A stretch of 64,000 nt of DNA from an uncultured Acidimicrobiales bacterium (GTDB taxonomy: Bacteria; Actinomycetota; Acidimicrobiia; Acidimicrobiales; SZUA-35), in the NCBI GenBank assembly GCA_937997485.1, contig CALKTH010000009.1, forward strand, positions 187,538 through 251,537. The letters are read 5' to 3'. The first letter of the stretch is position 1. Each line of letters begins with the position of its first letter. The notes beneath the pieces were generated by a model. It was not told the DNA's origin. It made no database searches and worked only from the letters and a program-made list of their open reading frames with translations. Positions 4,397-11,423 of the stretch are shown here, piece by piece. The position numbers and the translations under genes are program-made.

Positions 4397-7240
4397 TCAG
4401 CCGGTGATACGGAGGGCGACGGCGGGCGGCGTGTTGCCCGCACGGCGTGCCGGACCGATTGCGGCGATGAGCGAAGCGGCGAGTGCCACGGCGCCCAAGG
4501 CCAGGAGTTCGACGAAGGGGACGGAGAAGGTGAGCCCTTCCTCGAATGCCGACGACCTGGTCAGCGTCTGCCAGGAACTGAGCAAGCCCATGCCGACGCC
4601 GAGCAGCACACCCTGCAGCCCGATGAACGCCGCTTCCACCACGAACGCCCGGCGACTCTGACCCGCAGGAACGCCGATGGCGTTGAGCATGCCGAGCTGG
4701 CGACGCCGTTCACGGACGGCTCGAACCAACACCACGCTCAACCCGGCGATGCCGATCAGAAGGCCGAGGCCGAGGTAGCCCGACAACAAACGGAGGAAGC
4801 CTTCCTGCTCCTTCATTTCAACCTGGGCGTCGGAGAGCACGGTGCGAGCGTCAACGCCCTGTTCTGGGAGGGACCCAGTCAGCGACGCTGCGAGCGCTTC
4901 TCCTGCCTGGGCATCCGAGGTCGAGACCAGCACCCGACTCGGTGTACTCGGCTCGAGCGTGGTGCCGACTGCGGGCGACAGGTAGATGCCAGCGCCGATC
5001 AGCCAGTTGTTCCTGGTAGTACCGGCGACAGTGGCGAGCGTCGAACCGCCTTCCGCTGCCAGCACCTCGACCTCATCGCCGACGATGAAGTCGCTGTACT
5101 CGGGAACGATGATCCAGTCCTGACCTGGGCCGGGCGAGGCGATGGCCGCCCATGCCTCGCTGTCGGAGGTGAAGCCCGCAGCGCGCTCATCGAGCGCTGG
5201 CATCCGTGCCGGATCCACGTTCTCGCTGAGCACCGTCACAGACCAGCCCTCGACATCCTCACTGCCCGGCGAGCGAAACTCAGCCCCGGTTCGGGTGACA
5301 ACGACGGCGCTCTCGACACCGGGTTCGGATTGCACCTGGTCGAGACGGATCGGGGCGACGGGGTTGCTGTCGACCACAACGTCGTAGGAACCGGAAGCCT
5401 GCGCCGCCAGGTCCGGTGCGGCTGCGGTGAACACCGAATTCATCACGGACATGAAGGTCACCGTGAAAAGTACCAAGGCGTACATGGCCACGAGGAGGGC
5501 GCTCCGCACCGGACGAGACAGGGGGTGAGCGAGGCCCAGTCGGACCCCGATGCCGCCGCCGCCCAATCGCTTGGCCGCCGCTAGCCACACGGCGTCGAGC
5601 GACGCGACCATCGTGGTAGCCAGTCCGACGAGCAGCACCCCTTGGAGCAGGAAGAGCTCGATACCAGGATCCGCCATGGTCTCGGGCAGCACACCGAAGA
5701 CCGAGGCAGCCCATGCCAGCGCCACGCCGCACAGCGCCACCGTTGAGACCCGACGAGCCAACCCCGTTGCCGGGAGAAAGCGCCCGACAACCGGAATGAG
5801 GGAGATCAGTCCGACCACCGGGGCGAGCAGAGCGACCACTGGAGTGGTGCTGGCCAGCACGAAGAGCGCCGCAGCACCGGCCAAACCGATCAGGCCGACG
5901 ACGAGACGACGAGTGGAGTGTGGCGTACCCGCCGGTTCGGGAAGGTCCTTCAGCGCCCGGATGATGTTGACCTTGGTGAGCCGGATGCTGGTGAAGGCCA
6001 CCGTCAGTTGGGAGATGGCCAGGCCGATGACCGCACCGGTCAACAGATCGACGGCATCGAGACCCAACGACACGGTGAAGTCATCGCCATCGCTGGCGAA
6101 GATGTTCGATGCCACCCCGATGACGCCGGCACCGACCACGACGCCGAGCAACGCACCAACGATTGCCGCGATCACGCCGTACACCGCTCCTTCCATCATG
6201 AACGAGCGCAGGAGGTGGCCACGCTTGAGACCGACGGCTCGCATCGTTCCCAGCTCCGTCTGACGTTCGCCGGCGAGCATCACGAACAAGTTGATCACCA
6301 GGAGAATGCCGGCGATGACGCTGAAGCCACCGACCGTTCCGAACAGCTCGGTCATCTCCGCCCCTTCGGCGTCGGCATCAGCGAGGAGCTCTCGCTTCAC
6401 CGCGTTGGTGTCGACCAGCTCCGCCGAACCGAGCTCGGCGGCCGCCACGTCGTCGATGATCGAGGACACCGTGTCGGTTCGGTTCACGCCGTCGTAGACG
6501 CCACCGGTATTCGACACGAGCACGCCCGAGCCGGCGACAGATTCGACATCGCCACCAGCGGCGATGACCGCGTCAGAGAACGTTCCCGGGCTCACAACGA
6601 TGTCGGCGAAGCCAGCAAGACCGGTGGCAGGAACGACGTCGATCACATCGAGCACGCGCCCCTCGGTCCCGGCGAAGACCTCAACCGTCGCGCCGGTCGA
6701 GACACCCAGCTCGTCAGCCAGTCGCTGATTGATGACTGCCTCGGCTGGCCCAGGAGCGGTCACGCCGCTGAGTCCGGTGAGCTCTGGCTGACCGCCGAAA
6801 CCGCCGGCCCGCTCGACGTCCACTTCGAACAGCTGCGCCGAGGGCTCCACTCGTCGTGCGTCGCCCGCCGGGCCGCCTACCGCAACATCGGCAAAGAGCA
6901 ATGGCAGCGTGCCATCGATCTCGCCGCTCGTATTGCGTTCGAGACCGGCGGCGAGTCGATTCGCTGAGTCCAAATCCTCGGTGATCACCAGCTCGTCCGC
7001 AGGGCCCCACGTTGTCTCTGCGATGGCACGGATCGACTGCTCGAAGCTGGTTCCGACCACGAGCGAGCCGGTGATGAGGGCGGTGGCGAGCATCGAACCG
7101 CCAACCACCAAGGCCGCTTCGCCCTTGCGGCGAGCAACGTTGCGGAGCGCAATGCGACGAATCGTTCCGCCACGCAGAAGATCAGCTGCCACGATCGGCA
7201 GCAGAAGTGCGAGTGCACCCAGTGCGAGAATGAGGATCAT
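4397..7240 (-). CDS. FtsX/MacB-like ABC permease with duplicated permease modules
   Basis: Two FtsX-type segments (ERQTELGTMRAVG; ERRRQLGMLNAIG) with large extracytoplasmic loops; ATG at 7240 overlaps the ATPase stop (ATGA). Confidence 0.88.
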   Translation of the reverse strand: MILILALGALALLLPIVAADLLRGGTIRRIALRNVARRKGEAALVVGGSMLATALITGSLVVGTSFEQSIRAIAETTWGPADELVITEDLDSANRLAAGLERNTSGEIDGTLPLLFADVAVGGPAGDARRVEPSAQLFEVDVERAGGFGGQPELTGLSGVTAPGPAEAVINQRLADELGVSTGATVEVFAGTEGRVLDVIDVVPATGLAGFADIVVSPGTFSDAVIAAGGDVESVAGSGVLVSNTGGVYDGVNRTDTVSSIIDDVAAAELGSAELVDTNAVKRELLADADAEGAEMTELFGTVGGFSVIAGILLVINLFVMLAGERQTELGTMRAVGLKRGHLLRSFMMEGAVYGVIAAIVGALLGVVVGAGVIGVASNIFASDGDDFTVSLGLDAVDLLTGAVIGLAISQLTVAFTSIRLTKVNIIRALKDLPEPAGTPHSTRRLVVGLIGLAGAAALFVLASTTPVVALLAPVVGLISLIPVVGRFLPATGLARRVSTVALCGVALAWAASVFGVLPETMADPGIELFLLQGVLLVGLATTMVASLDAVWLAAAKRLGGGGIGVRLGLAHPLSRPVRSALLVAMYALVLFTVTFMSVMNSVFTAAAPDLAAQASGSYDVVVDSNPVAPIRLDQVQSEPGVESAVVVTRTGAEFRSPGSEDVEGWSVTVLSENVDPARMPALDERAAGFTSDSEAWAAIASPGPGQDWIIVPEYSDFIVGDEVEVLAAEGGSTLATVAGTTRNNWLIGAGIYLSPAVGTTLEPSTPSRVLVSTSDAQAGEALAASLTGSLPEQGVDARTVLSDAQVEMKEQEGFLRLLSGYLGLGLLIGIAGLSVVLVRAVRERRRQLGMLNAIGVPAGQSRRAFVVEAAFIGLQGVLLGVGMGLLSSWQTLTRSSAFEEGLTFSVPFVELLALGAVALAASLIAAIGPARRAGNTPPAVALRITG

Positions 7241-8031
7241 GACGCCACCGATCCGTTCTTGATCAAGCCATCCCGAACCTCGACGAGACGGTGGGCCCGC
7301 TGGCCGATGGTCGGATCGTGTGTCACAACGACCATCGTCTGACCAGCAGCGTTTGCCTCGCCGAAGAGCTCCAGCACGGCGGCTGCAGTGGCGCTGTCGA
7401 GGTTGCCTGTCGGTTCGTCGGCCCACACCACGGCTGGCTCGGTGACGAGGGCCCGCGCCACGGCGACTCGTTGCTGCTCGCCACCGGACAGCTCGGCCGG
7501 GCGGTGGCGACCTCGTTCAGCCAGGCCGACGCGACCCAGCATTCGACTGGCAGCTTTGCGGGCTGCTGCCGGTTTGGTTCCGGCGGCCAAGAGGGGAAGC
7601 TCCACATTCTCCTCGGCACTCAGCACCGGAATCAGGTTGAAGCTCTGGAACACGAAGCCCATGCGGGCGGCGCGGTGCGCCGTCCGCATCCGGTCCGGTA
7701 GCTCGTGAATGGATCGGCCATCGATGACCACCTCGCCGGCGTCGATCGTGTCGAGCCCGCTGAGGCAGTTCAACAGCGTCGACTTGCCGTTACCGGAGGG
7801 CCCCATGATGACCACAAACTCGCCGCTGTTGATGTCGAGATCCACTCCCCGCAGCGCCGAGACCACAAGATCCCCGCTGCGATAGGTCTTACTCACTCCC
7901 CGAGCAGAGACAAGCGGCGCCCAGCCGGGTCGGTCGGCGCCCGCCCCGGGGGCGGTCGTGTTGGTCAACGGATCCGTGGTGTCGAGGGCGGCCTTCTTCG
8001 GATTCGTGCTGTTTTGATGCGTGCTGATCAT
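7237..8031 (-). CDS. ABC transporter ATP-binding protein (LolD/MacB type)
   Basis: GPSGNGKST, LSGGEQQRV, WADEPTGNLD, VVTHD. Confidence 0.95.
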   Translation of the reverse strand: MISTHQNSTNPKKAALDTTDPLTNTTAPGAGADRPGWAPLVSARGVSKTYRSGDLVVSALRGVDLDINSGEFVVIMGPSGNGKSTLLNCLSGLDTIDAGEVVIDGRSIHELPDRMRTAHRAARMGFVFQSFNLIPVLSAEENVELPLLAAGTKPAAARKAASRMLGRVGLAERGRHRPAELSGGEQQRVAVARALVTEPAVVWADEPTGNLDSATAAAVLELFGEANAAGQTMVVVTHDPTIGQRAHRLVEVRDGLIKNGSVAS

Positions 8032-8066
8032 GATGCTCAGCCTGATCGGACCGTCGCCCCTGAGCG

Positions 8067-8094
8067 ATCAGTGGTGACCCTGAACGCACCCTGA
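8067..8094. promoter_or_regulatory. Operator-like motif ATCAGTGGTGACCCTGAACGCACCCTGA, copy 1
   Basis: Near-identical to 10038-10065; about 23 bp upstream of a candidate -10 (CAGGCT) of the ABC ATPase gene. Confidence 0.7.
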
Positions 8095-8110
8095 GCGCAC
8101 TCGGGGGTGG

Positions 8111-8752
8111 TCAGACGATCCGTCGACGCGCGGCCCAGCTGGAGAGTTCGTGTCGGCTCGAGAGCTGCAGTTTTCGCAGCACGCTCGATGCGTGGGTCTC
8201 CACCGTCTTGATCGAAATCGTCAGGCGGCGGGCGATCTCTTTGTAGGCGTACCCCCGGGCCAGAAGCCTCATGACCTCCTGCTCGCGGGGCGAGAGCAGG
8301 TCGAGCTCCGGGTCCGCAGGTTCAGGAATCGCGGCGGAGAACGCATCGATGACGAAACCAGCGAGCCGGGGCGAGAACACAGCGTCACCCTCAGCGACTC
8401 GGCGAACAGCATCGACGAGCTCTGCCCCCGGGATGGCCTTTGTGACGTAGCCCCGAGCTCCGGCCCGGATCACCGCGATTACGTCGTCGGGAGCATCGGA
8501 AACCGAGAGCGCAAGAAATCGGACATCGTGGCCGCGAGCGACCACGCCGGCGATCACGTCCGCTCCTGTGCCGGAGGGCAAATGAACATCGAGCAGAACC
8601 ACATCGGGCTGAGTCTCGACCACGACGTCGACCGCTTCGACCACGTCGCCTGCCTCACCGACGACTCGCACGTGATCGCCGAGTTCTGCGCGAACGCCAG
8701 CTCGCACGAGATCATGATCGTCGATCAGCACCACACTCGGTTGATACACCAT
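8111..8752 (-). CDS. NarL/LuxR-family response regulator
   Basis: VVLIDDH, DVVLLDVHLP, GARGYVTK; C-terminal LSPREQEVMRLLARGYAYKEIA HTH. Confidence 0.95.
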   Translation of the reverse strand: MVYQPSVVLIDDHDLVRAGVRAELGDHVRVVGEAGDVVEAVDVVVETQPDVVLLDVHLPSGTGADVIAGVVARGHDVRFLALSVSDAPDDVIAVIRAGARGYVTKAIPGAELVDAVRRVAEGDAVFSPRLAGFVIDAFSAAIPEPADPELDLLSPREQEVMRLLARGYAYKEIARRLTISIKTVETHASSVLRKLQLSSRHELSSWAARRRIV

Positions 8753-10002
8753 CAGCTCGGCTCCTCGGTCGTGTTGGGTGTGGACATCGTGGCCTCTCGC
8801 TGAACAGAAAGCTCCACCTCGGTCCCTTCTCCCGGCGCAGTGTGGATGAGCGCTTCGCCCCCAGCTCGCTCCATACGTCCGTGAATCGATTCGCTGACGC
8901 CGCGACGGTCTTCTCCGACGGTCGCAGGATCGAAGCCTTGGCCAGTGTCACGAACAAAGATCTCCACGCGTTGCGCGCTCACCTCAGCGAACACGTCGAT
9001 TCGCGAAGCGCCGGAGTGCTTCGCCGCGTTGACCGCCGCTTCGCGGCAGGCACCGATGAGCGCCTCGATCGCATCGTCCACGAGCGCATCACCAACGTTC
9101 ACCACTTCGATCGGCACACCGAAGAGATCCTCGACATCGGAAGCGATGTCGTCCAGACGCCCCCGCAGGCTGCCGCCGGAACGGGAGGCTCGGCTGGGAT
9201 CGAGGTAGTTCCGGAGCTCACGCTCTTGCCGGCGCGCCAAGCTGACCATCTGCTGCGGATCCTCACCCTTCTGGATCAGCGCCAATGTCTGCAGCACCGA
9301 ATCGTGGAGATGCGCGGCAACCTCGGCTCGTTCGTCAGATCGGGCGCGAGCTTGGCGTTCCGCATCGAGGTCGGTGACGAGGCGCATCCACCATGGGGCG
9401 GAAAAGGCGATCAAACCGGTGACCGCCGCGGCAGCTGCAAACGACGACTGAAGATCAAGGCCCAGATCCAGAGATGTCAGGAAGCCGGCGAACCCAGCCA
9501 CGGCGATCAGGAGCCCTCCAAGGCGCGGCACCCACACCGGCACGCGAGATGCCAGATGAGCGCCGTACAACGGCCGAAGGGCGAGCAAGGAACCGGCGCC
9601 CATGAGGGCCAACGGCCAAATGATGTTGGCCCGTAGCCCACCGAGCTGGCCCAGGAACAACGTCAGGCCGAGCGTCACGAGCACCAGGCCAGCGAGTCGC
9701 CGCGGGCGATCCTTGGCTTTGGCTTGGGGTGGCTGCGCCGAGACGAACCCTCGGTAGGCGGCGAGTGAAAGGCCGCCCCACGCGATCAGGTAGAGCAACC
9801 CGCCCCAGCCACCCACAGCGAAGAGCACGACGAAGGCCAGACGCACCAGCAGGACATCAACACCGATCTCGGCGGCGACTCCCGAAGCAACACCGCCGAA
9901 CAATCGCTGACCGTTCCGCACATCGGGCAATTGCCAGAACGGGCGCGCCGAGTCGCCGGAGGGTGCCAACGGCACATGAGGAGGAGGAAGGACGCCCGAC
10001 AT
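8752..10002 (-). CDS. PspC-domain sensor histidine kinase
   Basis: N-terminal PspC (FGGVASGVAAEIGVDVLLVRLAF), TM helices, HLHDSVLQTL H-box, RDTGQGF and GTEV ATPase boxes. Confidence 0.92.
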   Translation of the reverse strand: MSGVLPPPHVPLAPSGDSARPFWQLPDVRNGQRLFGGVASGVAAEIGVDVLLVRLAFVVLFAVGGWGGLLYLIAWGGLSLAAYRGFVSAQPPQAKAKDRPRRLAGLVLVTLGLTLFLGQLGGLRANIIWPLALMGAGSLLALRPLYGAHLASRVPVWVPRLGGLLIAVAGFAGFLTSLDLGLDLQSSFAAAAAVTGLIAFSAPWWMRLVTDLDAERQARARSDERAEVAAHLHDSVLQTLALIQKGEDPQQMVSLARRQERELRNYLDPSRASRSGGSLRGRLDDIASDVEDLFGVPIEVVNVGDALVDDAIEALIGACREAAVNAAKHSGASRIDVFAEVSAQRVEIFVRDTGQGFDPATVGEDRRGVSESIHGRMERAGGEALIHTAPGEGTEVELSVQREATMSTPNTTEEPS

Positions 10003-10037
10003 GAAGAACCATGATCGCACGAGCGAGAGCACTGCAC

Positions 10038-10065
10038 ATCAGGGGTGACCCTGAGCCAACCCTGA
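10038..10065. promoter_or_regulatory. Operator-like motif ATCAGGGGTGACCCTGAGCCAACCCTGA, copy 2
   Basis: TCAGGG-N4-CCCTGA palindrome plus a CCCTGA direct repeat at 11-bp period, in the divergent kinase/pspC intergenic region. Confidence 0.7.
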
Positions 10066-10133
10066 CGAGGACAGCGAAGAATGCGAGACTCACCTGATGG
10101 GCAACAGCGACGAACGGGCGGATCATCGTCGGT

Positions 10134-11423
10134 ATGAACGACACGCTTGCTCCCGACGACGACTCATCTCCGATGACTGATCACGACGCTCCAGATCCTG
10201 GCGCCGCGACGACGCCCCCAACGGATCCCCGATCCTCGTCGCCCGGTGCGGGATACCAACAACCGCCTGCACCGCAGCGTCGGCTGCGCCGGTCCGCTCG
10301 CGGCCCGTTTGGCGGCGTGGCCAACGGCATCGCCGAGTTTCTGGGAGTCGATGCGATTCTCGTCCAGGCGGCATTCGTCGCTTTGACCGTGTTCGGTGGG
10401 AGTGGCGTCCTCCTGTACCTGGCGGGCTGGTTCCTGATTCCGGATCACACGAGCACCGACCCTCGCCCCGTCGCGGTGAGCAACAAAGCGCTCAACGTCA
10501 TCATCGGCGTGCTCTTTGCCACCGGAGCCGCATCGCTTGTCTTCGGCTCGATCACCCTCGGCTTCTCTGGCAACTTCATCGCCGCTCTGGCCCTCGTCGG
10601 GCTCGGCGTGTTTTTGCTCAACCAGCGGCCGGAGGCAAACAGTTCTGGCAGTGTGGTCGCGGCTCCCGCTTCGATGGCGGCGCCTACGTCATCAACGACG
10701 GCCCCGGCGCCCTCCATGTGGGCGCCGCCGACACCTCCCCCTCCTGCGCCGTCGGACGCCCATTGGGCGATGACACAGGTCCACGACGAAGTCCTCGGCT
10801 CTCCTCCCCCGGTTGAGCCTGGGCCACCGGTCACCAGTGTGACGCTGGCGCTGTCCGCCCTCGTTGTCGGCGTGCTTCTCACCATCGATCAGCTGACGGG
10901 AGCGGACATCTCCGCCTCTGTCATGATCGGGGCGGCCCTCGCCGTCATGGGTGGCGGGCTCGTCGTGAGCGCCTTCGTCGGACGTGCACTCGCCCTGATT
11001 CCCATCGGCATCGTCACCGCCCTTTGCCTGCTCGTTGCTCCGATTCTCGACTTGACGATCGACGGCGGCAGCGGCTCGCGAGAAGTTGTCGAGACCGACG
11101 TCGCCAACCTTCAGACGGACTACGTGCTTGGCGCCGGTGCGCTGGAGCTCGACTTCACCGGCCTCGAGATCATCGAAGACACCACCGTCAACGTGGCCGT
11201 CGGCGCCGGCTACACCGAGATTTGGGTGCCGGACGATGTGAATGTCAAGGTCATCGCGTCCTCCGACTTCGGATACGTCGAGGTCTTCCGCCGAGAATCC
11301 GCAGGCGTCGGGGCGGAACGAACCAGCACCGTCGCACCACGAGGCGACATCGATCCGAGCACAGCACCCACGCTCACGGTGACGGCAGACGTCCGCTTCG
11401 GCTACGTGGAGGTCAACCGATGA
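10134..11423 (+). CDS. PspC domain membrane protein with C-terminal LiaF/DUF2154-like beta domain
   Basis: RRLRRS..GGVANGIAEFLGVD PspC motif, several TM helices, YVLGAGALELDF..VAVGAG..EIWVP C-terminus. Confidence 0.85.
   Translation: MNDTLAPDDDSSPMTDHDAPDPGAATTPPTDPRSSSPGAGYQQPPAPQRRLRRSARGPFGGVANGIAEFLGVDAILVQAAFVALTVFGGSGVLLYLAGWFLIPDHTSTDPRPVAVSNKALNVIIGVLFATGAASLVFGSITLGFSGNFIAALALVGLGVFLLNQRPEANSSGSVVAAPASMAAPTSSTTAPAPSMWAPPTPPPPAPSDAHWAMTQVHDEVLGSPPPVEPGPPVTSVTLALSALVVGVLLTIDQLTGADISASVMIGAALAVMGGGLVVSAFVGRALALIPIGIVTALCLLVAPILDLTIDGGSGSREVVETDVANLQTDYVLGAGALELDFTGLEIIEDTTVNVAVGAGYTEIWVPDDVNVKVIASSDFGYVEVFRRESAGVGAERTSTVAPRGDIDPSTAPTLTVTADVRFGYVEVNR

Follow-up and report, generated by a model that had tools for sequence, protein, structure and literature searches.

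Two closely similar 28-bp sequences stand upstream of a sensor kinase gene and an ABC transporter gene in an uncultured Acidimicrobiales bacterium, and the question that they raise is whether both are binding sites of the response regulator encoded between them. The window, meaning the whole stretch of DNA analysed here, comprises 64,000 nucleotides of contig CALKTH010000009.1 (assembly GCA_937997485.1), and all coordinates refer to it. A previous sequence-only reading of this DNA had proposed such a regulon, uniting the kinase and regulator genes, a pspC operon and the ABC exporter in a response to envelope stress.

The paired 28-bp sites and the genes around them

The two sequences, ATCAGTGGTGACCCTGAACGCACCCTGA (8067-8094) and ATCAGGGGTGACCCTGAGCCAACCCTGA (10038-10065), are identical at 24 of 28 positions, and each contains two copies of CCCTGA, starting at 8078 and 8089 in the first and at 10049 and 10060 in the second. 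The matching pair and the 11-bp spacing of its repeats are thus real features of the DNA, as the sequence-only reading had claimed, and the additional CCCTGA that it placed beside the ABC site is present. Throughout the 4.86-Mb assembly the compound pattern was matched at these two positions only, and a 27-nt pattern allowing up to two mismatches likewise matched only these two in the window, with 0.00 matches expected from 100 shuffles. A genome-wide motif scan had been suggested as a check on the reading, with a motif common throughout the genome named as evidence against it. The scan returned no strong sites beyond the two. The TCAGGG-N4-CCCTGA core, with at most one mismatch, was found at seven places genome-wide compared with ~20 expected from base composition, and the bare hexamer was unenriched (30 copies versus 41 expected), which indicates that the motif is not common genome-wide. 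Shuffles and genome-wide scan together rule out chance or a common motif as the source of the pair.

The gene calls of the sequence-only reading were correct, as judged by Pfam and NCBIfam domains and by solved relatives (Table 1). The PspC domain of the kinase was recognised with a Pfam E-value of 9.7e-11; its HisKA_3 part fell below the Pfam threshold, and the conserved H-box AHLHDSVLQ is present in the alignment. Translation of the kinase most likely begins at the ATG at 10002 rather than at the first in-frame GTG (10032), because of the 36-nt spacing described below and the alignment of relatives. The start codon of the regulator gene overlaps the kinase stop codon, and the regulator has NarL (1a04), DevR (3c3w) and VraR as its best solved relatives, with an identity across the phylum of 62-86%. 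For the ATPase the best NCBIfam matches were LolD, MacB and YbbA, all under their cut-offs, while the permease gene, whose ATG and the stop codon of the ATPase gene overlap (ATGA), gave weak matches to LolC/E and ADOP. The divergent membrane protein gene, referred to below as pspC, is separated from the kinase gene by a shared spacer of 131 bp.

Table 1 Features of the locus, with coordinates in the window
Feature	Position	Strand	Details
Permease, 947 aa, two FtsX domains	4397..7240	-	Pfam FtsX, two stretches
ABC transporter ATP-binding protein, LolD/MacB/FtsE type, 264 aa	7237..8031	-	Pfam ABC_tran
ABC -10-like region	8039..8047	-	GATCAG 8047-8042 overlapping CAGGCT 8044-8039
Extra half-site TCAGGG	8058..8063	-	Inside -35/spacer region of ABC promoter; not conserved in relatives
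ABC-promoter operator (predicted)	8067..8094	-	TCAGGG(8094-8089)-tgcgt-TCAGGG(8083-8078)-tcac-CACTGA(8073-8068)-T(8067); 36 nt before ATG 8031
NarL/LuxR-type response regulator (EsrR/CgtR7-like), 213 aa	8111..8752	-	Response_reg and GerE domains
Sensor histidine kinase, N-terminal PspC domain (EsrS/CgtS7-like), 416 aa	8752..10002	-	Pfam PspC 31-75, HATPase_c 315-401
Kinase -10-like hexamer GATCAT	10011..10016	-	22 nt after operator, 8 nt before ATG 10002
Kinase-promoter operator (predicted)	10038..10065	-	TCAGGG(10065-10060)-ttggc-TCAGGG(10054-10049)-tcac-CCCTGA(10044-10039)-T(10038)
pspC proximal half-site ACCTGA-T	10092..10098	+	36 nt before ATG 10134
pspC -10-like hexamer GATCAT	10121..10126	+	7 nt before ATG 10134
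Divergent membrane protein (EsrI-like), 429 aa	10134..11423	+	Pfam PspC 49-104, LiaF-like_C 330-426

Promoter geometry and conservation across the phylum

Read in the direction of the genes, both sites have the layout TCAGGG-N5-TCAGGG-N4-C(C/A)CTGA-T followed by exactly 36 nt to the kinase or ATPase ATG, and the kinase-promoter site consists of one direct repeat at an 11-bp phase and an inverted repeat. The candidate -10 elements were confirmed at the 22-23 bp given by the sequence-only reading, with 22 nt to GATCAT before the kinase gene and 23 nt to CAGGCT before the ATPase gene. Relatives carry GA(C/G/A)CAT at the same place as the kinase hexamer, which has the phylum-wide form TGnGAcCAT, and GACGAT at -12 to -7 from the ATG as the counterpart of the ABC -10. 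The distance from the -10-like hexamer to the ATG is 7-10 nt and no Shine-Dalgarno sequence was found before the kinase ATG (10002) or the ATPase ATG (8031), which suggests that both mRNAs are leaderless or nearly so. Both promoters show only a weak -35, and the scan turned up no sigma-70 consensus promoter, in keeping with a need for an activator. With its end at -37 from the start codon, the proximal half-site abuts the weak -35 region. This layout fits leaderless promoters that carry a class II-like activator site. The pspC promoter has a weaker proximal half-site, whose upstream partner is degenerate; within the genus this half-site is retained as TTGACTGTCCYGATGGG, at 35-36 nt from the ATG of pspC.

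Phylogenetic footprinting, also suggested with the earlier reading, supports a role of these sequences as operators. All 20 relatives examined retain an array of TCRGGG/CCCYGA half-sites between pspC and the kinase gene, and among 12 relatives with an adjacent transporter, 10 carry an array before the ATPase gene, in the form (TCRGGG-N5)n-TCRGGG-N4-C(C/A)CYGA-T and 35-36 nt from the ATG; the remaining adjacent transporters (L031 and L035) are without a clear site. The divergent pspC arrangement is conserved in the relatives and phylum-wide. Orientation is not fixed, as in one genus of the family, g3 (L037 and L043), it is pspC and not the kinase gene that the full array faces, at 35 nt from the pspC start codon.

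Across 80 named loci of Actinomycetota, the core yCRGGG-N4-CCCYGA-TG occurs 34-37 nt before kinase starts, and the distance from half-site to start codon peaks at 34-36 nt, a value shown by 31 of the loci. Positions that took no part in the selection of sites are also conserved, namely G at -11 (31/31), G at -12 (28/31), T at +1 (28/31) and G at +2 (27/31). Searches with TCRGGG-N4-CCCYGAT in 25 relatives yielded 71 matches versus four for the reversed control, and YCRGGG-N4-CCCYGAT gave 23 versus none in five named genomes. Phylum-wide, co-conservation with the site was seen for the kinase, regulator and pspC genes alone, an observation that favours the cognate regulator as the binding protein.

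Other genes, too, are preceded by this module. It was found 36 nt before an unlinked ABC ATPase gene of a congener (L170), at the same distance before an ABC ATPase and double-FtsX permease on another contig in Williamsia (L135/L157), and before esrI-like, PspC-only and DUF998 genes; the esrI-like gene of Saccharopolyspora rosea has an inverted repeat 36 nt ahead of it. Unlinked transporters with the operator were found in genome G003 and in a Williamsia. Among five genomes of the family without an adjacent transporter, four have no orthologue at all, and the fifth (G013) has a permease orthologue (45% identity) that is unlinked and carries no operator. A search of the window's own genome for further members, using inverted repeats with up to two mismatches and a start codon 34-37 nt downstream, gave only background-like matches besides the two known sites, and DUF998, which recurs as a target in other genomes, did not turn up in this assembly, which is 92.8% complete.

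A predicted autoregulated operator and the alternatives to it

Conservation, fixed spacing and the identity of the co-conserved genes all support the earlier proposal that the sites would be bound by the regulator encoded at 8111..8752. We consider it probable that the 28-mers are operators of this NarL/LuxR-type protein, and that the locus specifies an EsrISR-type three-component envelope-stress system by which its own operon and the ABC exporter would be induced. The regulon put forward in the sequence-only reading is supported for the sites of the kinase-regulator operon and of the exporter. It needs amending for pspC, which does not appear to be served simply by the 28-mer and has a weaker half-site of its own (10092-10098).

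From the observed sites we infer binding, activation, an inducing signal and transcription starts along the following lines. Under envelope stress, the PspC/LiaF-like membrane protein would cease to inhibit the PspC-domain kinase, which would then phosphorylate the regulator. A regulator dimer would occupy the inverted repeat TCAGGG-N4-C(C/A)CTGA, as other NarL-family proteins do, and the further TCAGGG 11 bp upstream, on the same face of the DNA, could take up another protomer or dimer by cooperative binding. The bound regulator may recruit RNA polymerase in a class II-like manner. Induction of the kinase-regulator operon would provide positive feedback, the ATPase and double-FtsX exporter would be the effector, and induction of pspC-liaF, through its own proximal half-site and the shared upstream array, would supply negative feedback.

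One alternative accepts the operators and assigns them differently: the array at 10038-10065 would act mainly on the divergent pspC promoter, leaving pspC and the ABC genes co-regulated and the kinase-regulator operon without autoregulation. The array does lie within the shared spacer, 69-96 nt ahead of the ATG of pspC, and the arrangements in genus g3 and in Saccharopolyspora rosea show a complete array or inverted repeat on that side. Nevertheless we regard this assignment as unlikely, because the array of the window and its genus agrees with the ABC site in orientation and in its 36-nt spacing to the start codon, because pspC possesses a proximal half-site at the canonical 36 nt, and because the inverted repeat precedes kinase starts phylum-wide at 34-37 nt. 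As both promoters are probably served, the matter is one of degree.

A second alternative concerns the sign of regulation. If the regulator represses these genes or sets their basal expression, stress would lower the occupancy of the operators. Activation is not to be assumed from homology alone, since EsrR of Corynebacterium glutamicum represses some genes, including nlpC under stress, and a protein at the extra TCAGGG, within the -35/spacer region of the ABC promoter, would hinder RNA polymerase. That extra site is not conserved, however, and the conserved array ends upstream of the -35 instead of covering the stretch from -35 to +1. The lack of a good -35 is typical of activator-dependent promoters, and the C. 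glutamicum homologues of these targets (esrI, esrSR and the ABC transporters) are reported to be induced. Repression is therefore improbable in our view, and induction by the cognate regulator is the reading that we retain.

There is still less to recommend an unlinked binder, such as a global factor of the envelope-stress response or an alternative sigma factor for which CCCTGA would be the -35, and we think its involvement highly doubtful. One or two pattern matches do occur in several relatives without a close PspC-kinase match (G027 and G031-G033), but others (G011, G025, G026 and G030) have neither a pattern match nor a PspC-kinase match; G024, also without a PspC-kinase match, was outside the pattern search. 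The phylum-wide co-conservation described above speaks against an unlinked factor, as does the combination of inverted and phased direct half-sites, which suits NarL-family dimers and not a sigma factor. The spacing between -35 and -10 elements is 16-19 nt, and the 22-23 nt from CCCTGA to the -10 is too far, ruling it out as a special sigma -35. Finally, it is hardly credible that the pair lacks regulatory meaning and goes back to chance, to duplication of a fragment, to a repeat element, or to a hairpin or terminator that acts in the RNA between the regulator and ABC genes. Read-through RNA could fold the inverted repeat into a 6-bp hairpin, but shuffles do not reproduce the pattern, the genome holds no other copies, and sequence, orientation and spacing are conserved where the flanks have diverged. 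A hairpin or terminator is ruled out in particular by the fold of 8025-8125 (z = -1.15) and by the terminator search, which found none.

Relation to known systems and significance

The closest known counterpart of the locus is the EsrISR system of C. glutamicum (CgtS7/CgtR7, cg0706-cg0709), a three-component cell-envelope stress system which, according to papers that cite its description (Kleine et al. 2017, PMID 28922502), is induced by bacitracin and vancomycin and regulates esrI-esrSR and ABC transporters. Bacitracin and vancomycin are inhibitors of the lipid II cycle, and EsrI acts as the inhibitor of the kinase. The kinase Cg0707 has 423 aa with PspC at 47-107 followed by HisKA_3/HATPase, and Cg0709 is of LuxR type (Bott & Brocker table). 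The kinase described here is similar in length and likewise carries an N-terminal PspC domain, a LuxR/NarL-type regulator is encoded directly downstream, and a membrane protein with its own PspC domain is encoded divergently. The regulon reportedly includes the system's own locus and FtsX-type ABC transporters in C. glutamicum, and the same is predicted here from the shared operators. The present host differs in belonging to another class, Acidimicrobiia, and in being uncultured. A further difference is that the transporter genes directly follow the regulator gene and have a copy of the operator, whereas the regulated transporters of C. glutamicum (cg3322-20 and cg2812-11) lie elsewhere on the chromosome. 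Papers citing the EsrISR work do not quote an EsrR motif.

The locus also resembles LiaFSR/VraTSR of Firmicutes in the LiaF-like C-terminal domain of the divergent protein, in its NarL-type regulator, for which VraR is among the best solved relatives, and in its predicted logic of autoregulation by three components, one of them a membrane inhibitor. It differs in its sensor, a PspC domain being fused to the kinase, whereas LiaS-type kinases sense within the membrane and have no extra sensor domain. It also differs in that the gene of the predicted inhibitor is divergent, while LiaFSR is encoded by a liaF-liaS-liaR operon, which induces liaIH (PspA homologue). The NCBIfam LiaS match of the kinase reached 29.6 bits against a cut-off of 450, which does not place it in that family, and no liaIH/pspA-type target occurs among the genes with strong sites. 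The DNA motif of the LiaR and VraR boxes appears to differ from the one found here. With BceRS-BceAB the locus shares a two-component system adjoining an FtsX-family ABC transporter, the transporter promoter being activated by the regulator, as is predicted here. BceR, however, is of OmpR type and BceS has no PspC domain, in contrast to the NarL-type regulator with its GerE/LuxR output. BceB, which is needed for sensing, consists of one permease of ~650 aa that has 10 transmembrane helices, one FtsX domain and a large extracellular domain, and the 947-aa permease with two FtsX domains is not of this type. The regulator has the same helix-turn-helix family as NarL and DosR, whose dimers bind inverted hexamer or heptamer half-sites, often with additional phased ones, and whose activator sites lie near the -35. 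NarL sites are of the 7-2-7 type and DosR recognises a 20-bp palindrome; the TCRGGG half-site with a 4-bp spacer appears to be unlike either.

The EsrISR type is already known, including a regulon of its own locus and ABC transporters, and the present locus is a new example of it. More tentatively, yCRGGG-N4-CCCYGA-T placed 34-37 nt before a leaderless start may represent an undescribed EsrISR operator-promoter module conserved across Actinomycetota, with the exporter captured beside the regulator gene through operator duplication in the family of the window; we hold this broader proposal to be possible rather than probable. The module reaches over Acidimicrobiia, Thermoleophilia-like and Actinomycetes lineages, and the targets seen repeatedly comprise the kinase operon, the esrI-like gene, and genes for FtsX-type ABC exporters, for membrane proteins with DUF998 and for small PspC-only proteins. 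Few signalling modules of Actinomycetota are as widespread as PspC-kinase loci, and to our knowledge EsrISR has been studied experimentally in C. glutamicum only.

For this genome, the gain lies in annotating the functions of a seven-kilobase locus with confidence and not in a new biological principle. If the broader proposal is true, any actinobacterial genome could directly reveal its envelope-stress regulon. An operator defined by sequence and fixed promoter geometry would allow envelope-stress and antibiotic-response regulons to be mapped in uncultured as well as clinically or industrially relevant actinobacteria, would help to pick out the ABC exporters likely to effect resistance to cell-wall-active peptides, and would offer a basis for stress-responsive reporters.

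A probable operator shared by the kinase and transporter genes

Genes at the locus were assigned by Pfam, NCBIfam and PDB sequence searches, and the ATPase stop codon was found to be overlapped by the permease start codon.

Genes and candidate regulatory sites of the locus
Feature	Position	Strand	Description
Histidine kinase	8752-10002	-	PspC domain at N-terminus
Response regulator	8111-8752	-	REC+GerE (NarL/LuxR-type); best solved relatives NarL, DevR, VraR
pspC	10134-11423	+	Membrane protein, PspC and LiaF-like C-terminal domain
ABC ATPase	7237-8031	-	LolD/MacB-like
Permease	4397-7240	-	947 aa, two FtsX domains
ATCAGTGGTGACCCTGAACGCACCCTGA	8067-8094		CCCTGA at 8078 and 8089
ATCAGGGGTGACCCTGAGCCAACCCTGA	10038-10065		CCCTGA at 10049 and 10060
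Extra half-site	8058-8063		CCCTGA
pspC half-site	10092-10098	+	ACCTGA-T

The two 28-mers are identical at 24 of 28 positions, and both their placement and the 11-bp phase of their CCCTGA copies, put forward in a sequence-only reading, were confirmed in the window. With up to two mismatches allowed, the compound operator pattern matched these two sites alone in the window (0.00 expected from 100 shuffles) and the same two alone in the whole assembly (4.86 Mb, 158 contigs, 92.8% complete). The inverted-repeat core (≤1 mismatch) occurs at seven places genome-wide versus ~20 expected from composition, the bare CCCTGA hexamer is not enriched (30 copies versus 41 expected), and genome scans found no further strong operator sites in the window's own genome. 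Coincidence does not explain the likeness of the 28-mers. A motif common genome-wide would have spoken against a shared operator; its scarcity therefore leaves the sequence-only reading standing. The extra CCCTGA that it noted is also present, within the -35/spacer stretch of the ABC promoter, where it forms an everted repeat with CACTGA (CACTGA-tcgc-TCAGGG); no conserved counterpart was found in relatives.

Both sites have the minus-strand form TCAGGG-N5-TCAGGG-tcac-C(C/A)CTGA-T, that is, 6-bp half-sites in an inverted repeat, 4 bp apart, with one more direct copy in 11-bp phase. Counted from the final A of the proximal half-site, the ATG of both the kinase (10002) and the ATPase (8031) is exactly 36 nt away, and a -10-like hexamer (A at position 2, T at position 6; GATCAT for the kinase, CAGGCT or GATCAG for the ATPase) follows 22–23 nt past the site, 7–10 nt before the ATG. 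No Shine-Dalgarno sequence, consensus -35 or consensus sigma-70 promoter was found at either promoter. Leaderless mRNAs are common in Actinobacteria, and we read both as predicted leaderless or near-leaderless, activator-dependent promoters, with the putative regulator site centred near -44 and adjoining the -35 region.

The pspC promoter has the same design, its half-site lying 36 nt from the ATG at 10134 and a -10 hexamer (GATCAT) 7 nt before it; the upstream half-site is degenerate. Within the genus the proximal half-site falls in an unusually well conserved 17-mer, TTGACTGTCCYGATGGG, 35–36 nt before the ATG (pspC upstream regions of loci L031-L036); the upstream half of this 17-mer is unlike a regulator half-site. 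The full array is oriented toward pspC, not the kinase, in the two loci of another genus of the family (g3; L037, L043). The divergent pspC-kinase spacer would evidently serve both promoters.

Conservation in the family and across the phylum

Footprinting upstream of pspC-kinase loci, a check suggested with the sequence-only reading, covered 20 relatives of the same genus, family and order, and the TCRGGG/CCCYGA half-site array was kept in every spacer (20/20). Kinase promoters of the window's genus follow (TCRGGG-N5)1-2-TCRGGG-N4-CCCYGA-TGGCA...GTGCGAnCAT...ATG, the half-site again lying 36 nt from the ATG. In 12 relatives the regulator gene is directly followed by the ATPase and double-FtsX permease genes; in 10 of these the array precedes the ATPase ATG by 35 nt (36 in one), and a GACGAT or similar hexamer occupies -12 to -7 in the relatives' ABC promoters. 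This array is kept while its flanks are unalignable, and is therefore selectively conserved. A clear ABC-promoter site is absent at the other two loci (L031, L035).

Several irregularities were observed among these relatives. Genome G003 has an adjacent transporter without a recognisable operator (L031, contig C24) and, on another contig (L170, C162), a closely similar ABC ATPase whose ATG is preceded at 36 nt by a complete operator; this could be due to paralogue exchange or an assembly split. At L035 (G020:C38) the N-terminal coding part of the ATPase gene contains about five tandem copies of a 15-nt unit, GCAGTACTCAAGACG, and the regulator-ATPase spacers of L037 and L043 carry a conserved G-rich GGGGGATGGGGGAGCG with a degenerate operator, TCCGGGtgacCCCCGA, immediately after it. 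The ATPase gene of L038 (G022:C11) is split across three reading frames, and kinase matches at G006:C37:38523-39719 and G009:C222:11112-12323 contain in-frame stops (2 TGA and 1 TAG); these may be pseudogenes or metagenome-assembled-genome errors.

A search of species-representative genomes provided 80 named loci spanning Acidimicrobiia, Solirubrobacterales, Gaiella, Pseudonocardiaceae, Nocardioidaceae, Propionibacteriaceae, Geodermatophilaceae, Kitasatospora, Williamsia and others. The pspC/kinase-regulator core is general across these, and the adjacent transporter is limited to the window's family. Spacing between a C(C/A)CYGA half-site and an in-frame kinase start peaks sharply at 34–36 nt (31 of the 80 loci). 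Alignment of the 31 on this half-site revealed G at -11 (31/31), G at -12 (28/31), T at +1 (28/31) and G at +2 (27/31), positions not used in their selection. The derived core is yCRGGG-nnnT-CCCYGA-TG, with a TGnGAcCAT-like -10 after it, ~8 nt ahead of the start codon. Regulator identity across loci is 62–86%, which would fit an unchanged DNA specificity.

Probable operators before other genes

In 25 relatives, TCRGGG-N4-CCCYGAT gave 71 matches versus 4 for the reversed control; with an initial Y (YCRGGG-N4-CCCYGAT), five named genomes gave 23 versus 0. Several of the additional matches have the complete promoter geometry, and the proteins encoded after them were identified by Pfam.

Additional genes preceded by the operator
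Genome and locus	Gene	Remarks	Distance to start
G003 (same genus), L170	ABC ATPase	On another contig; complete array of direct and inverted repeats	36 nt
Williamsia sp., L135/L157	ABC ATPase (50% identity with window's) + double-FtsX permease	Off kinase contig	36 nt
Saccharopolyspora rosea, L138	esrI-like gene		36 nt
G015, L163 (C86, ~10702)	93-aa PspC-only protein	Operator complete, with direct and inverted repeats	35 nt (ATG)
G010 (an Acidimicrobiia), L162 (C75, ~16992)	DUF998 membrane protein		35 nt
Amycolatopsis pretoriensis, L145 (G043:C13, ~455300)	DUF998 membrane protein		35 nt

These cases show a predicted module acting in trans, with FtsX-type ABC exporters as repeated putative targets, and DUF998 after the operator in two Actinomycetota classes may point to an uncharacterised gene that recurs in the regulon. 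A search for DUF998 in the window's own 92.8%-complete assembly gave no match, and an unlinked permease orthologue in relative G013 has no operator site. Lentzea waywayandensis (L150) and A. pretoriensis (L156) have in common a near-identical site, CCAGGGGGACCCCYGATTTCAA...ACCGACAAT, with no start codon at the canonical distance.

Relation to the EsrISR system

The locus has the same architecture as EsrISR (CgtS7/CgtR7), the envelope-stress three-component system of Corynebacterium glutamicum. In published accounts, the kinase (CgtS7/Cg0707, 423 aa) has PspC at 47–107 and then HisKA_3 and HATPase, its LuxR-type partner is the regulator CgtR7/Cg0709, and the inhibitor EsrI, with a PspC domain, is divergently encoded; bacitracin and vancomycin are inducers, the regulon includes esrI-esrSR together with two ABC transporters, cg3322-20 and cg2812-11, and PspC-fused kinases are known as widespread in Actinobacteria. 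The papers citing the original EsrISR study do not quote an EsrR motif. Given this regulon and the shared architecture, the model system predicts just such a regulon as the one proposed from sequence, made up of kinase-regulator, pspC and ABC exporter.

For the window locus, the transcription starts and the inducing signal are inferred, as are activation and binding by the regulator. That the sites are used for repression, or are bound by a factor other than the neighbouring regulator, is unlikely in either case because of the site positions, the weak -35 regions, the co-conservation of sites and regulator, and the C. glutamicum precedent. Activation by the neighbouring regulator is the preferred reading. 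By this comparison, the EsrISR-type system and the kind of regulon are already known, and the window locus adds another predicted member. The operator sequence, its phased repeat structure, the fixed distance to predicted leaderless starts and the conservation across the phylum may be new, as may the capture of a transporter beside the regulator gene, specific to the window's family.
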